Shown piece by piece: positions 39,698-47,480 of a stretch of 64,000 nt of DNA (the stretch's first letter is position 1; the number at the start of each line of letters is the position of its first letter). The DNA comes from Trichormus sp. ATA11-4-KO1 (GTDB taxonomy: Bacteria > Cyanobacteriota > Cyanobacteriia > Cyanobacteriales > Nostocaceae), in NCBI GenBank assembly GCA_019358915.1, contig JAHHIM010000003.1, positions 64,001 to 128,000 of the forward strand, given 5' to 3'. The notes under the pieces are model-generated. The model was given only the letters and a program-made list of their open reading frames with translations, was not told the DNA's origin and did no database searches. The position numbers and the translations under genes are program-made.

Positions 39698-39757
39698 TAA
39701 TTCGTAATTCGTAATTCGTAATTCGTAATTCGTAATTCGTAATTCGTAATTCGTAAT
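39698..39757. repeat. STRR heptamer array (TAATTCG)x8
   Basis: Eight perfect units. Confidence 0.97.
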
Positions 39758-41379: not shown

Positions 41380-41405
41380 ATAAGAATTTTTGAGGATAAT
41401 TAAAG

Positions 41406-41567
41406 GTTTGTAGTAAGTTAGCGCGGTCTTGGGGGTTTCCCCCATGAGCGACTAATGTAAAGCCCTGACGGGCATAGCTGCGCTTACCGCGCAGCGTGCC
41501 GGAGGCATTACCCGTAGGGTAAGGACTTTAGTCCTCAAAAAAAGGGCTAGAGCCGCTTACTACGAAC
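41406..41567. repeat. REP-like doublet interrupted by nested small dispersed repeats
   Basis: GTAGTAAG|insert|GACTTTAGTCCT with GTAAG duplicated at 41413-41417 and 41519-41523. Confidence 0.7.
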
Positions 41568-41574
41568 TCAATTT

Positions 41575-43020
41575 CTACTGTTGCGCTTCTGTGGGACGCT
41601 CATTGGGAACAAACTCTCCAGGAGTCGTTTCAATTGCTGGTTTGGTAACTTCAATTCCAGGTACAGGCAAATCGAAATTTGGCCCTCTACGAATAATTCG
41701 ACTACCAAAATAAATGTATGCCACTAGTAACAACATGTAACTGATTGTAAAACCCGTGAGGGATACAAGAACATTACTAGGGGGAAGATGAGAGACAGAA
41801 TCTACAGTGCGAATTTGGCGATAGAGTGTCCACGGCTGTCGCCCAACGCAACGCACAATCCAACCCGTATCGATCGCAATAAATCCTAATGGAGCTGCAA
41901 ACATCCAAGCACGCATCAACCAACGCTGCTGAGTAATATTATCTTGAGAAAGCCTGCCTAGTAACCAATAAATAATGCTGCCAAACATTAATCCGGCTAA
42001 TAAAAAACCAATACCAACCATTATGCGGAAAGAATAGTAAATTAAACCCACAAGGCGGGGACGATCCTCCGGTTTCCATTCCTTCAAACCCAGTACTGGC
42101 TCAGATAACTTTTCTTTAAATTCCAAAATATATCCTAGTGCATTGGGAATGACAAATTCCCAGTCGTTTTTCTCGGCTTTGTTGTTTGGTAATGCCAAAA
42201 GGCTCCAATTGGCAGGCTGTCCACCGGGAATTGTATTCCACTGGGCTTCCATTGCTGCCAGTTTTTCCGGTTGATAATGGTAGACTTGTTCAGCATTCAA
42301 ATGTCCGATATAAATTTGTAGGGGAGCGATCGCGATTACCGCCGCTAGAGCAATCTTGAAAGATTTGGCAAAGAAATCAGGATGACGATTTTTGAGAATA
42401 TACCAGGCACTAATTCCACCTATCACAAATAATGATGTTTCCAGCGTTGCCATAAACATATGGAGAACGCTTTTCACCATGAATGGGTTGACGATCGCCT
42501 GAAAATAATCATGAACCACAAACTTACCATTTACCATTTCTCCGCCTGCTGGTGATTGCATCCAGGAATTCGCTGACAAAATCCAAACCGTGGATAAGTT
42601 AGCACCAATTGCTACCAGAATCGTAGAAAGATAGTGAATTCTCGAATTAACACGCTCCCAACCAAATAACATAATCCCCAGAAATGCGGCTTCTAGCATA
42701 AATGCCCAAGATGCCTCAAACCCAATAACGCTGCCAAAAAAGTTACCAACAGCTTCCGAAAAAGCTGCCCAGTTAGTACCAAACTGAAATTCCATAGGAA
42801 TACCCGTTGCTACACCCACACTGAAGTTGAGGGCATAGAGTTTAGCCCAAAAACGAGCATGATAGTAATATTGAGGATTGCGGGTTTTTAACCATAGTCC
42901 TTCAATCATGACTAAATAAATCCCCACACCTGTTGTCAGTGTAGGCCAAAGCATATGAATAGAAGCCGTCAGCGCAAATTGCATCCGCGACAGTACGACG
43001 GTATTAGATAAAAATTCCAT
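41575..43020 (-). CDS. cydA: Cytochrome bd ubiquinol oxidase subunit I
   Basis: SRMQFA..H, EFQFGTNW, QPEKLAAME, SFRIMVG, GRQPW. Confidence 0.96.
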   Translation of the reverse strand: MEFLSNTVVLSRMQFALTASIHMLWPTLTTGVGIYLVMIEGLWLKTRNPQYYYHARFWAKLYALNFSVGVATGIPMEFQFGTNWAAFSEAVGNFFGSVIGFEASWAFMLEAAFLGIMLFGWERVNSRIHYLSTILVAIGANLSTVWILSANSWMQSPAGGEMVNGKFVVHDYFQAIVNPFMVKSVLHMFMATLETSLFVIGGISAWYILKNRHPDFFAKSFKIALAAVIAIAPLQIYIGHLNAEQVYHYQPEKLAAMEAQWNTIPGGQPANWSLLALPNNKAEKNDWEFVIPNALGYILEFKEKLSEPVLGLKEWKPEDRPRLVGLIYYSFRIMVGIGFLLAGLMFGSIIYWLLGRLSQDNITQQRWLMRAWMFAAPLGFIAIDTGWIVRCVGRQPWTLYRQIRTVDSVSHLPPSNVLVSLTGFTISYMLLLVAYIYFGSRIIRRGPNFDLPVPGIEVTKPAIETTPGEFVPNERPTEAQQ

Positions 43021-43313
43021 GATGATATCTCTATGATGAAGTTAGATCCTATGGCGCTACTCAGATCCACATGATTAAGCTGAGGCGATCGCATCTTCAT
43101 CTATCATCAGACTCATTGCCAAATTGTTATGCTATCTGCTGCTGTGCCTGTTTTGTCGATAAACTCTTATGCAGATGTGCTTTTTATGGTACACCTTAGC
43201 TCGACTTTATCCATTGTGGCTTATCTGCTTAATGTATAACCGCATACTTGATATATGGTTCCAGAAAATTAGGAGTTACGTAGACTCCTTGCGTTGGTCT
43301 GAGGGAAACAAAT

Positions 43314-44300
43314 ATGAAGAATCTAAAAAAAATTCTTTGGATTTTACCTACAAGTGCCGTATTGGTAGGGCTGTATTCTAGCAAAGTAATTGCAGATAAC
43401 AATATTTCGCCTCCTGTTACACAAAATGGCGTGACTTCTTTTATTTCATGTCTAACTGAACCAGGTGGCTATTATGTTGGGTCTTGGACTGTACGGCATG
43501 ACCCAACGAGTGACAAAATAACTTACGTTGATATTGTTGAGTACTTTCAAGGAGGCGTTTATCAAACATTTTCATATTTGGTTAATCCACCACTAACAGT
43601 AGTAAAAAACGTAGAAAACCTTGTGCAACAAGCAATGAGCAAATATGAACAAGACAACTATCAAGGGGCATTGAGCGATTACAATCAAATTATCCAGCTT
43701 GAGCCAAACAATGAATGGCATTACTTCAATCGTGGTCAAATTCGGCGATTAATGAAAGACAAGAAAGGAGCAGCAGAAGATTTTCAAGAAGCGATAAAGC
43801 TTAATCCAACAGAGGCATCAGCATACAACATGCTAGGTATCACTCTTCAAGAACTGGGAAAAATAGAAGAAGGTGTTGAAATTTTTACTCAAGGTATAAG
43901 AACAGTTCCTGAACTAAATAAAAAAGAAAGAAAATCTCTTTATGCCAACCGAGCAAGCGCATATATGCGTTTAAACAACTGGCAAGCAGCTCTAGAAAAC
44001 CTTCATAAAGTAATCGAACTTGACCCAAGTGCTGCCCATTATTACACAAGCAGGGGAAAAGTACGCGGAAAATTAGGCGATATGCAAGGAGCAGAAGCTG
44101 ATTTAAGTGAAGCAGACCGAATGAAGCCAGATAATAGCTCTCTGCAATTATCAATAGGCACTATATATGAAGAGATGGGAATGAAGAAAAAAGCAATAGA
44201 GCATTATCAAAAAGCGACTCAAATTGCTACAAAAGAAGGTGACACACGAATGCAACAGTTGATACAGGAAGCGTTGCAAAGCGCGTATCTGGGACTTTAG
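43314..44300 (+). CDS. Secreted TPR-repeat protein
   Basis: Signal peptide, a unique domain of about 70 aa, then about 6 TPRs. Confidence 0.85.
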   Translation: MKNLKKILWILPTSAVLVGLYSSKVIADNNISPPVTQNGVTSFISCLTEPGGYYVGSWTVRHDPTSDKITYVDIVEYFQGGVYQTFSYLVNPPLTVVKNVENLVQQAMSKYEQDNYQGALSDYNQIIQLEPNNEWHYFNRGQIRRLMKDKKGAAEDFQEAIKLNPTEASAYNMLGITLQELGKIEEGVEIFTQGIRTVPELNKKERKSLYANRASAYMRLNNWQAALENLHKVIELDPSAAHYYTSRGKVRGKLGDMQGAEADLSEADRMKPDNSSLQLSIGTIYEEMGMKKKAIEHYQKATQIATKEGDTRMQQLIQEALQSAYLGL

Positions 44301-44349
44301 TCCTCTTTCTCCTGTGGTCGTCGTTGAGCGCAAAGCACACGCTACCCGT

Positions 44350-44409
44350 ACCCACACCGAAATTGAGGGCATAAAGTTTAGCCCAAAAACGAGCATGATA
44401 GTAATGTTG
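44350..44409 (-). pseudogene. 60-nt relic of a cydA copy
   Basis: 56/60 identical to 42814-42873; reads QHYYHARFWAKLYALNFGVG. Confidence 0.9.
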
Positions 44410-44462
44410 TATACCTTATTTATTTGAAATTTGCTGTATTATGTGATTTGGGCACTAAAGCT

Positions 44463-44588
44463 TCACCGTTGCGCGATCGCCTTTTGATTAATCTGTGAAT
44501 AGCCAGTAACCGCGATCGCCGCACTAACCCCAACAATTCCCATCAAGTGAGTCAACTTTTTAGCCAAGTTTTCATCTGCTAAATTCAT
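44463..44588 (-). pseudogene. 41-aa ORF consisting only of a signal-peptide-like sequence; probable truncated secreted-protein gene
   Basis: MNLADENLAKKLTHLMGIVGVSAAIAVTGYSQINQKAIAQR; starts 13 nt after the coxA stop and ends just after an AIA motif encoded by a HIP1 site. Confidence 0.5.
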
Positions 44589-44601
44589 GTAGTTAACATT
44601 C

Positions 44602-46326
44602 CTATGTAGACGATTTTTGTTCAGAGTTTTGGTTGTCATCGGCATGACTTGCAACGGCTAGATCAGGCTGAGGATTTTCTTGATCTGAGCGGCCGTTCGC
44701 TGCAGATGCACGCACGCCGTAATGGTAAGGGTGTACGGCTAAAACTGGTTGAGTTTTAAAGTTTTCTGGTGGTGGTGGTGAGGTTGTCATCCATTCAAAA
44801 GTCAGACCTTGCCAAGGGTTATCAGGTGCTTTTTTGCCGTATAGCCAGCTATGGCAAACATTAACCAGGAAAGGTAGGGTAGAAATTGCCAGTAAGACTG
44901 CACCGATAGAACAAATAAGATTGAGGTCGGCAAATTTAGGGTCATACACAGCAATTCGCCTTCTCATCCCTTGCATACCCAACTCGTGCATAGGGAAAAA
45001 TGCCAGATTGAAGCCGATATATGTCAGGACAAAGTGAATTTTGCCTAAGGTTTCATCTAACATTCGCCCGGTCATTTTGGGAAACCAATGATAAATGCCG
45101 GCATACAAACCAAAGACACTACCACCAAATAAAACGTAGTGCAGGTGAGCCACAACGAAATAGCTATCATGGACGTGAATGTCGAAGGGAACCGCAGCTG
45201 TCATCACGCCACTAATTCCACCAATGACAAACACGGAAATCAAGCCCATGGCAAATAACATCGCAGTCCGAAAGTGGATTTTGCCCGACCAGAGGGTTCC
45301 TAACCAGCTAAATACTTTAATCCCTGTGGGTACGGCAATAACCATGGTGGTAATCATGAAAAACATTCGCACCCATCCAGGTGTCCCAGTGGTAAACATA
45401 TGGTGCGCCCAGACAATGAGAGATAAACAGGCGATCGCAATACTGGAATAAGCAACGGCTAGATAACCAAAAATTGGCTTGCGGGCGTGAACTGGCAAGA
45501 TTTCTGAGATCATCCCTTGGACTGGGAGAATCATGATATACACAGCCGGGTGTGAATAATACCAGAACATGTGTTGGTAGACTACAGGGTCTCCGCCACC
45601 TGTGGGGTTGTAGAATGTCGTACCCGCCAAAAGGTCAAAAGCCAGTAAAATCAAAGCCGCAGCGAGTACAGGGGTTGCTAGCAGTGTTAAACCAGAAGTT
45701 CCTAACATTGCCCAGCAAAATAAAGGCATTTGATTTAGCCTCATTCCTGGTGTCCGCATTTTGAGAATCGTTACCAGAAAATTTAGCCCTGCCATGATTG
45801 AGGAGGTTCCCAGTAAAATCAGGCTGAAAATCCACATGGCTTCACCGGCTTGACTCATGATCAGACTTAGCGGTGGATAGGATGTCCAACCAGCCTGGGG
45901 TGGATCTACAAAGAAACTCGCTAGAAGCAAAAGGCCAGCTGGCGGGACAAGCCAAAAGGCGATCGCATTCAATCGCGGGAAAGCCATATCACGCGCCCCA
46001 ATTAATAGCGGCACTAAAAAGTTACCAAATCCCCCCGTCCCAGCCGGGATAATCCACAGAAAAATCATCACAGTTCCGTGGAGGGTAAATAAACCGCTAT
46101 AAAATTCAGGACTAACTAAGTCTGACTCTGGTGTTGCTAGTTCACTACGAATTAAAGTTGCCAACGCACCACCAAATAGATAAAAAACAAAACTTGTAAC
46201 TAAGTATTGAATGCCAATAACTTTATGGTCAGTGCTAAAACTAAAATATTCTCGCCAATTTCTCACTGGCAATTCTTCACCATGAGCAGCAATATTAGCA
46301 GTTTCTTGTACTTGTATTTGTGTCAT
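44602..46326 (-). CDS. ctaD: Cytochrome c oxidase subunit I (A2-type), stand-alone paralog
   Basis: DHK.IG, HGTVMIF, DMAFPRLN, YSHPAVY, WAHHMF, PTGIK, VAHLHYV. Confidence 0.96.
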   Translation of the reverse strand: MTQIQVQETANIAAHGEELPVRNWREYFSFSTDHKVIGIQYLVTSFVFYLFGGALATLIRSELATPESDLVSPEFYSGLFTLHGTVMIFLWIIPAGTGGFGNFLVPLLIGARDMAFPRLNAIAFWLVPPAGLLLLASFFVDPPQAGWTSYPPLSLIMSQAGEAMWIFSLILLGTSSIMAGLNFLVTILKMRTPGMRLNQMPLFCWAMLGTSGLTLLATPVLAAALILLAFDLLAGTTFYNPTGGGDPVVYQHMFWYYSHPAVYIMILPVQGMISEILPVHARKPIFGYLAVAYSSIAIACLSLIVWAHHMFTTGTPGWVRMFFMITTMVIAVPTGIKVFSWLGTLWSGKIHFRTAMLFAMGLISVFVIGGISGVMTAAVPFDIHVHDSYFVVAHLHYVLFGGSVFGLYAGIYHWFPKMTGRMLDETLGKIHFVLTYIGFNLAFFPMHELGMQGMRRRIAVYDPKFADLNLICSIGAVLLAISTLPFLVNVCHSWLYGKKAPDNPWQGLTFEWMTTSPPPPENFKTQPVLAVHPYHYGVRASAANGRSDQENPQPDLAVASHADDNQNSEQKSST

Positions 46327-46352
46327 GATCAATAAAAATTAGCTACTAGCAA

Positions 46353-46958
46353 TTACTGATTAGTATCATTGGTATCTTCTACAGCTTGCTGTAAAATCTC
46401 CGTTGGTAAAACACCAACTCGATGAGCATCATCAGGAACTCCGTGAGGATCTAAGACTCCTTGAGGCAAGTACACTAATTCTCGTAGTGGTGTCACCATC
46501 GGATCTTCGGTAACTTTGTAAGGTAGTCTTCCCATTGCCACGTTGTCATGATTCAATTCGTGGCGGTCATAAGTACAAAGATCATATTCCTCAGTAAATG
46601 ACAGACAGTTTGTTGGACAAAATTCCACACAGTTGCCACAGAAAATGCAAACTCCAAAGTCAATACTGTAATGCTTGAGTTCTTTCTTTTTATATTCTTT
46701 ATTAAATTCCCAATCTACCACTGGGAGGTTAATAGGGCAGACTCGAACACAAACTTCGCAAGAAATACATTTATCAAATTCAAAGTGAATTCTCCCTCGG
46801 AAGCGTTCAGAGGGAATCAGTTTTTCGTAAGGATATTGCACAGTAATGGGACGACGACCCATATGGTCGAAAGTCACCGATAATCCTTGTCCAATATAGC
46901 GACCTGCTTGCAAAGTTTGTTTGGCGTAATCACCAACTGGTTTGAGAAACTTAAACAT
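46353..46958 (-). CDS. ndhI: NDH-1 subunit I (2x[4Fe-4S]), stand-alone paralog
   Basis: [32 protein letters not shown]. Confidence 0.96.
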
Positions 46959-47443
46959 GAGTAAACTAGTCTCAGCTAAGAACACTACTAATCAGCACGG
47001 TAATAGTTGCTGTTAACAGTAACTTCCGTCAAACGGCAGGCTAAATGTTAAGTTTGAGTGTGAGTCAAAATACAAATTTCTGTTTAAATATTGCCTGTTT
47101 TAGCAAAAAATATTGTAGTAGCGTGACCAGACTAAAATAGAGCAATAAGATTTTCTTGTGGAACAGGCAGCTTGACTGTTCTATAAGAATTATTTTTATG
47201 CATTAAATTAGTCTGATCTCGCCAGTAGTTAAAGCAAATAAGTTATGAATTTATTCAAGAAATAAATGCAATATTTATATCAGCAGAAAATACTACATTT
47301 TAATTAAGCTAAAGATAAAACTCAGCCAAATATTTATTTTGGTAATTAATTCGGAGGTGATAAATACAACTTATGAGTGTAAATTTTATTTTACTTGTTG
47401 ATTTCAGGCGATCGCATAGCTATAGAATTCTTTGATATCAAAG

Positions 47444-47480
47444 AAAAATCTGAGTAACGACAACCGTTACTCAGATTTTT
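47444..47480. terminator. Bidirectional terminator-like hairpin
   Basis: AAAAATCTGAGTAACG-ACAAC-CGTTACTCAGATTTTT, perfect 16-bp inverted repeat. Confidence 0.7.

Follow-up and report, generated by a model that had tools for sequence, protein, structure and literature searches.

Why would a cyanobacterium keep single core subunits of three respiratory complexes close together, each away from the genes of its partner subunits? The question is raised by a window of 64,000 nucleotides from Trichormus sp. ATA11-4-KO1 (Nostocaceae; assembly GCA_019358915.1, contig JAHHIM010000003.1, positions 64,001 to 128,000 of the forward strand). Between its positions 41,575 and 46,958, the window encodes NdhI of the type-1 NAD(P)H dehydrogenase complex (NDH-1), subunit I of a heme-copper oxidase, and CydA of cytochrome bd. 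An earlier note on this DNA proposed that the three genes are second copies, expressed together under some condition to remodel or repair their complexes. On balance, these genes, here called ndhI2, coxA*, and cydA*, probably encode spare cores for water stress that are inserted into housekeeping complexes, as judged from sequence comparison.

46353..46958, minus strand: ndhI2, an extra 2x[4Fe-4S] subunit of NDH-1 (201 aa; assigned by TIGR00403, motifs, and tree)

44602..46326, minus strand: coxA*, a fourth heme-copper oxidase subunit I (A2 type) without its own coxB or coxC (574 aa; assigned by TIGR02891 and ligands)

41575..43020, minus strand: cydA*, encoding subunit I of cytochrome bd; its clade is partner-less, and the genome has no other cydA (481 aa; assigned by PF01654)

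Window proteins were searched with the profiles TIGR00403 and TIGR02891, at NCBIfam equivalog cut-offs, and PF01654. NdhI2 scores 335.6 bits on TIGR00403 (cut-off 302.35), has CxxCxxCxxxCP motifs at residues 64 and 104, and is 79% identical to the canonical NdhI of its own genome (ndhAIGE, contig C73). The ATG of coxA* lies 26 nt past the ndhI2 stop. Its product scores 707.7 bits on TIGR02891 (cut-off 670.75) and possesses H83, H259, H308, H309, H394, H396, the YSHPAVY motif (257-263), D113, and K337. All five CoxA* proteins found in the family keep the six His ligands, YS-HPAVY, the D-channel Asp, the K-channel Lys, the Arg pair, and the Mg-site HD. Some of these residue roles are our assumption. 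The others follow the available text of PMC6616624.

CydA* is intact. Equivalents of E. coli H19, E99, E107, H186, K252, E257, M393, W441, and R448, counted from an alignment to 6rko, are invariant in 10/10 CydA* and 36/36 other CydA proteins; the ligand roles of these positions are presumed. Residue 391 of the window CydA corresponds to E. coli E445 by the same count, which we take to be a heme ligand. It is Cys in all 46 aligned cyanobacterial CydA proteins and is therefore not special to CydA*.

Near the three genes, ndhA/G/E, coxB/C, and cydB were looked for and none was found. A canonical ndhAIGE operon is encoded elsewhere in the host genome (5.97 Mb, 99.9% complete), as are three coxBAC operons, so ndhI and coxA of the window are extra copies. 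The genome has one cydA only, that of the window, and a single lone cydB on another contig (C65:55001). This cydB sits upstream of an ABC gene that, in a relative, comes after cydAB. The earlier note thus read the genes correctly: both NdhI motifs, the A2-type subunit I at 26 nt with its ligands and channel residues, the complete cydA, and the local lack of partners all hold. Its term "second copies" applies to ndhI and coxA and fails for cydA.

The extra ndhI is not peculiar to this strain. The family survey covered 389 genomes, in which ndhI was searched with a profile made from 18 lone copies, and at least two matches were found in 46 genomes (12%). Unrelated ndhI duplicates may be under-sampled, because the profile was built on lone copies. 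Neighborhoods were inspected within about 8 kb at 43 ndhI2 loci from 42 other genomes, a set that leaves aside the extra ndhI of G003, G008, and G175, a third copy in G402, and five of the six two-copy genomes outside the family. No lone ndhI locus is inside ndhAIGE (0/43), and all 43 proteins, each a distinct sequence, have both cluster motifs and form one clade against 68 canonical sequences (FastTree 0.997). Outside the family, two ndhI matches were found in 6/283 sampled genomes. One of these, G519, was fully inspected and has ndhK2-ndhI2 behind galactose-turnover genes.

Other lone core subunits accompany ndhI2 at 26/43 loci. Recurrent neighbors are DUF4142 (15 loci), psaB2 (13), ndhH2 (10), ndhK2 (9), a UDP-galactopyranose mutase fusion (8), a GH1-RmlD fusion (7), a YflT-like gene (6), coxA* (4), and a methyltransferase (3). 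Stress-type neighbors, namely DUF4142, YflT-like, short-chain dehydrogenase/reductase, DUF4383, or sugar-turnover genes, are present at 28/43. The companions also form clades of their own. All nine cluster ndhH genes and one contig-end copy fall in one clade (0.999), and all 16 lone psaB genes, including those that adjoin ndhI2, form another (1.0). At all 13 psaB2 loci, the gene is the divergent neighbor of ndhI2. The host genome was searched for psaB2, and none was found.

CoxA* is found in 5/389 family genomes at 86-100% identity, with next matches at most 73% among the best three candidates per genome. The gene is directly behind ndhI2 in all five, and the five form one clade (IQ-TREE 99/99). 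Locus L036, from Cylindrospermum sp. NIES-4074, reads ndhI2-coxA*-ndhH2. In each coxA* genome, A-type coxA genes outnumber coxB and coxC genes by exactly one (4/3/3 in four genomes and 5/4/4 in one; a weak 765-aa COX1 match of G001 was not counted). Cox1 is the closest of the Cox types, and CoxA* is 67-70% identical to its subunit I, from which it is set apart by 62 clade-specific changes, one of them a helix VI substitution, F to Q at 270.

CydA* is found in 10/389 family genomes at 86-100% identity (next matches at most 80%) and forms one clade (10/10, FastTree 1.0). L236, which stands alone in its neighborhood and groups with the canonical sequences in the tree, was placed with the latter. 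cydB is beside cydA* in 0/10 genomes, and each of the 10 has exactly one cydB. In two genomes (G125, G130), cydA* is a true extra copy and cydB adjoins the canonical cydA. The other eight have no cydA besides cydA*, and their cydB is unaccompanied, so cydA* would work with CydB in trans. In these eight, the cydA* clade appears to have replaced the canonical gene. Most simply read, cydA* would have begun as a spare that pairs with CydB in trans and allowed loss of the canonical copy. In the host genome, it has probably taken over the housekeeping role alongside the lone cydB.

The ratio of nonsynonymous to synonymous substitution (dN/dS) is low in all three groups. Median pairwise values are 0.095 for ndhI2 (84 pairs; canonical 0.056), 0.109 for coxA* (10 pairs; canonical 0.048), and 0.076 for cydA* (45 pairs; canonical 0.052). 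These values mark the three as working genes on which constraint is somewhat relaxed or has shifted. With 2 clade-specific changes in NdhI2 and 20 in CydA*, these two look like near-equivalent spares, and CoxA* may be retuned as well. Amino-acid sparing, with fewer Cys and Met in the second copies, was considered as their role and rejected, as compositions are alike.

The searches that the earlier note had called for come out in its favor for two of the genes. The canonical operons are present, the ndhI-coxA adjacency recurs beyond chance in five genomes of four genera, and each copy has its own clade with dN/dS about 0.1, far from 1. For ndhI and coxA, none of the three genomic findings that the note had named as telling against it (sole copies, a layout unique to the strain, dN/dS near 1) was made. 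Its idea of subunit swapping stands as a probable reading for these two, with their own clades, low dN/dS, recurrent layout, and lack of dedicated partners, and falls for cydA as a second copy in the host genome.

The layout in the window is a deleted remnant of a larger cluster, to judge from the sister genome G001. There, the order is ndhI2, coxA*, DUF4142, ndhH2, ndhK2 (opposite strand), an S-adenosylmethionine (SAM) methyltransferase, and cydA*. About 3.5 kb is missing from the window relative to G001: the remainder of DUF4142, ndhH2, ndhK2, and the methyltransferase.

44463..44645, minus strand: DUF4142 5' stub of about 60 codons, with the break at about 44470, just past a GCGATCGC site, presumably HIP1

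44407..44470, minus strand: remnant of the methyltransferase-cydA spacer on the right side of the deletion, 95% identical to G001

44350..44409, minus strand: 60-nt fragment that duplicates nt 148-207 of a cydA* coding sequence, 93% identical to the window cydA

43314..44300, plus strand: tetratricopeptide repeat (TPR) gene on a ~1.2-kb insert not in G001

The three genes are all on the minus strand, as the earlier note had stated. They are not a contiguous run, and the DUF4142 stub, the cydA fragment, and the opposite-strand TPR gene intervene. Because G001 lacks the TPR gene, we do not count it as a module member, and it is probably unrelated. The 60-nt copy at the edge of its insert is nearer to the G001 cydA (95%) than to the window cydA. 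A dispersed repeat with many genomic copies follows cydA at 41396-41574, and a tandem heptamer, (TAATTCG)n, is at 39700-39757 between convergent genes.

Upstream of ndhI2, two elements are conserved, and a half-site is found before cydA*.

47023..47040, minus strand: conserved dyad CCTTTC-N4-GAyAGARG, about 85 nt before the ATG, a de novo motif from 40 ndhI2 upstream regions

46997..47005, minus strand: second element TATTACCGT, about 21 nt downstream of the dyad, the second-best motif, at a median of 51 nt from the ATG

43098..43110, minus strand: cydA* promoter half-site C-N4-GATAGATG, followed by TA 20 nt on, kept in 7/10 cydA*

The dyad is likely a regulator site, and TATTACCGT is read as a putative -10. 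At 13 bits or more, the ndhI2 matrix matches 40/43 ndhI2 regions (mostly the training set), 0/61 canonical ndhA regions, and 2/409 other genes. An independent test at 10 bits or more found 7/12 psaB2 upstream regions against 12/409 other genes. The cydA* half-site pattern was written after sight of these sequences and has a background of 33/3172. The NfSrr1 motif ATMAGTAARCYYAAT (PMC11962455) was found at no more than two mismatches in 3/40 ndhI2 and 1/10 cydA* upstream regions, too few to assign it to either promoter. A perfect 16-17 bp hairpin is upstream of ndhI2 at 47444-47480.

The condition is suggested by psaB2. In Anabaena PCC 7120, the second psaB, alr5314, rises 6.0-fold in salt and 4.7-fold on dehydration, and 2.2- and 1.8-fold in the orrA mutant; its induction is OrrA-dependent (available part of PMC9804601, Table S1). 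Under the same stresses (salt/dehydration), the canonical genes change to 0.33/0.16 for ndhI, 0.48/0.40 for ndhH, 0.54/0.49 for ndhK, and 0.24/0.97 for psaB. The akinete-marker homologue avaKb is tagged next to alr5314 in the same source. At L293, psaB2 of the ndhI2-linked clade and an avaK-like gene converge, as the tags alr5314/all5315 imply for the PCC 7120 pair. Clade and synteny place alr5314, in our inference, with the ndhI2-linked psaB2 genes. In a PDB search on psaB, the only PsaB entries among the matches listed were labelled 'A2' or 'A2 1'.

A mechanism can be proposed from these observations. NdhI and NdhK carry the three Fe-S clusters of NDH-1, and NdhH lines the quinone site; CoxA carries hemes a/a3 and CuB, and CydA binds all three hemes (available text of PMC6616624). 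The duplicated set is NdhI, NdhK, NdhH, CoxA, and CydA plus PsaB, with the exception of CoxB, the holder of CuA, which is not duplicated. Water stress would damage Fe-S, heme, and Cu centers while housekeeping ndh and psa genes are repressed. The set of ndhI2, ndhH2, ndhK2, psaB2, coxA*, and cydA* would be switched on by dehydration, salt, and possibly the akinete state. These second copies would go on supplying exactly those subunits, and their partners would come from the housekeeping operons. NDH-1-dependent and respiratory electron flow would thereby be maintained or restarted. More tentatively, and less likely, the genes would be a modular, co-regulated kit of heterocyst-forming cyanobacteria that re-equips NDH-1, photosystem I (PSI), and the aa3 and bd oxidases with altered cores for drying or dormancy. 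Such a kit would be a respiratory water-stress counterpart of far-red light photoacclimation (FaRLiP). It would involve an activator site new to the literature, and CoxA* would join Cox1 B/C in a fourth, hybrid cytochrome oxidase.

Several results weigh against spare cores for water stress. The condition itself would come from one companion gene in another species, tied by synteny. In PCC 7120, canonical cydA and coxA1 hardly change under salt or dehydration (available part of PMC9804601), so the rationale that the housekeeping copy is off may not extend to the oxidases. cydA* is linked to ndhI2 in only 2/10 genomes (G000, G001), and ndhI2 is present in only 4/10 cydA* genomes. The module is dispensable, given its patchy distribution, its doubled dN/dS, and the deletion in the host genome. 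Its promoters are also not uniform. Those of cydA* score 1-4 bits on the ndhI2-only matrix and share the right half-site alone. A symmetric genome-wide scan for the dyad gave 57 matches against 57.5+-17 in 20 shuffles, and the composite motif precedes 1/14 homologues of OrrA-induced genes (p=0.14), where matrix percentiles are mixed (12-94). On the shuffle-level scan and the OrrA-target homologues, the ndhI2 motif failed as a regulon definition. An asymmetric scan gave 63 intergenic matches against 19-46 in five shuffles, and a sigma-70 consensus scan gave no excess (13 against 16+-3.6).

Two other conditions proposed by the earlier note have to be compared with water stress. In a low-oxygen or dark set, like psbA1/acsF2/ho2/hemN, the genes would retune PSI, NDH-1, and the oxidases for micro-oxia, which is unlikely. 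Consistent with it, a model predicts PsaB2-PSI to be more efficient anaerobically (available text of PMC4582080). ndhI2-psaB2 adjoins pyruvate:ferredoxin oxidoreductase in G015. In G403, acsF-like, heme oxygenase, and HemN-like genes are neighbors of cydA* (1/10 cydA* loci), and in G019 and G171 about 4 kb separates ndhI2 from chlL/chlN-like genes. Such neighbors are found at one or two loci each, however, against DUF4142 at 15/43, and no low-oxygen gene is a recurring neighbor family at the 43 ndhI2 loci, where no queries of their own were run for them. Which PCC 7120 tags are the low-oxygen copies is our assumption. On that assignment, salt and dehydration induce psaB2 but none of the acsF-like, heme oxygenase, and chlL genes (available part of PMC9804601). 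In the same Table S1, nifJ2 (alr1911, pyruvate:flavodoxin oxidoreductase) is 5.3-fold up on dehydration (p=0.045), so the G015 neighbor would fit water stress as well as low oxygen. The conditions favoring PsaB2 are stated as undetermined in the available text of PMC4582080. A heterocyst-specific set of alternative cores for N2-fixing cells is very improbable. Heterocyst proteomes of N. punctiforme gave the first detection of PsaB2, yet psaB2 is transcribed in vegetative cells as well as heterocysts (same text). The ndhI2 clade is almost confined to the family; G519, outside it, nevertheless has ndhK2-ndhI2. No nif gene recurs at the 43 ndhI2 loci, and the host genome already has nif-linked Cox2 and ARTO-type operons (types assigned after the available text of PMC6616624). 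Among these conditions, the indirect evidence favors dehydration or salt, possibly with akinetes.

There may also be no shared program. The genes would then be old, horizontally moved duplicates, expressed or decaying, clustered by hitch-hiking, with cydA a displaced housekeeping gene. The patchy distribution, a dN/dS about twice the canonical value, and the deletion and unrelated insert in the host genome fit this account, as do the variable neighbors of cydA*, its status as sole copy in most of its genomes, and the branching of ndhI2 and coxA* outside the canonical clades of the family. It is nonetheless quite unlikely, as dN/dS stays near 0.1 up to synonymous distances of about 1 with all ligands kept, and the promoter is conserved across genera. 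Duplication is also limited to cofactor- or quinone-site subunits, drawn from four different complexes.

Other features recur around ndhI2. Galactose-turnover genes (GH2, galT, galK, M24-like, UDP-galactopyranose mutase, GH1-RmlD) are beside it at L185, L190, L173, L197, L313, and others, which suggests that recycled sugar fuels respiration as part of the same program. The SAM methyltransferase accompanies ndhI2-DUF4142 at three loci (e.g., L026:12929-13675, L027:5983-6744), where a predicted quinone-modifying role is conceivable. A conserved open reading frame of 71 aa is upstream of psaB2, between psaB2 and ndhI2 where both occur (L285-L294). A third ndhH type, apart from the canonical and cluster copies, is at G000 C42:17599-18783 and also at L343. 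It is 75% identical to NdhH2 on its own branch (1.0), has similar matches of 76-77% in G001 and G008, and follows a gene that we take to be AraC-like.

A literature search, with subscription papers largely outside its coverage, found no description of ndhI2, the ndhH2/ndhK2 companions, coxA*, cydA*, or the cluster. The available portions of PMC7699953, PMC9035410, PMC4046671, and PMC13131328 have nothing on these genes. Among described systems, the complete operons for Cox1, Cox2, Cox3 (the alternative respiratory terminal oxidase, ARTO), and CydAB of PCC 7120 belong to the same enzyme families (PMC6616624, available text). coxA* differs as a fourth, partner-less subunit I and cydA* in being unlinked from cydB. 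NdhK2 of Synechocystis PCC 6803 is likewise a second NDH-1 Fe-S subunit, encoded by a single gene in a unicellular species (PMC7058544, available text). The OrrA regulon includes the companion psaB2, beside avaKb (PMC9804601). It differs in that the ndhI2 motif is not demonstrated before OrrA-target homologues, and the text searched defines no OrrA site.

By analogy, the module would work like known paralog swapping in the forms of psbA/D1, PsaB2, and FaRLiP, with PsaB2 as its one known member. Copies of petC are also condition-specific paralogs. FaRLiP (PMC4658448, available text) and the D1 forms have paralogous cores outside the housekeeping operons, in clades of their own and under separate promoters, as found here, where the swap is predicted. 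The targets differ, being NDH-1 and two terminal oxidases, with one to five cores per genome, and the apparent trigger is water stress rather than light quality. The closest likeness is PsaB2 of N. punctiforme (alr5314 in PCC 7120; available text of PMC4582080 and PMC9804601), also a lone second cofactor-bearing core apart from its partner gene. It has a common promoter half-site with ndhI2, and its clade adjoins ndhI2. PsaB2 differs in being photosynthetic and described alone, and the host genome is without it. Isoform swapping is well known for photosystems and, in the literature searched, not for NDH-1 Fe-S subunits or terminal-oxidase cores of cyanobacteria. A lone coxA, cydA, or ndhI may be labelled a relic in error. 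The linkage sets PsaB2 in a wider group with a candidate promoter and trigger, and it names targets for how desiccation-tolerant and akinete-forming cyanobacteria sustain respiration and cyclic electron flow.

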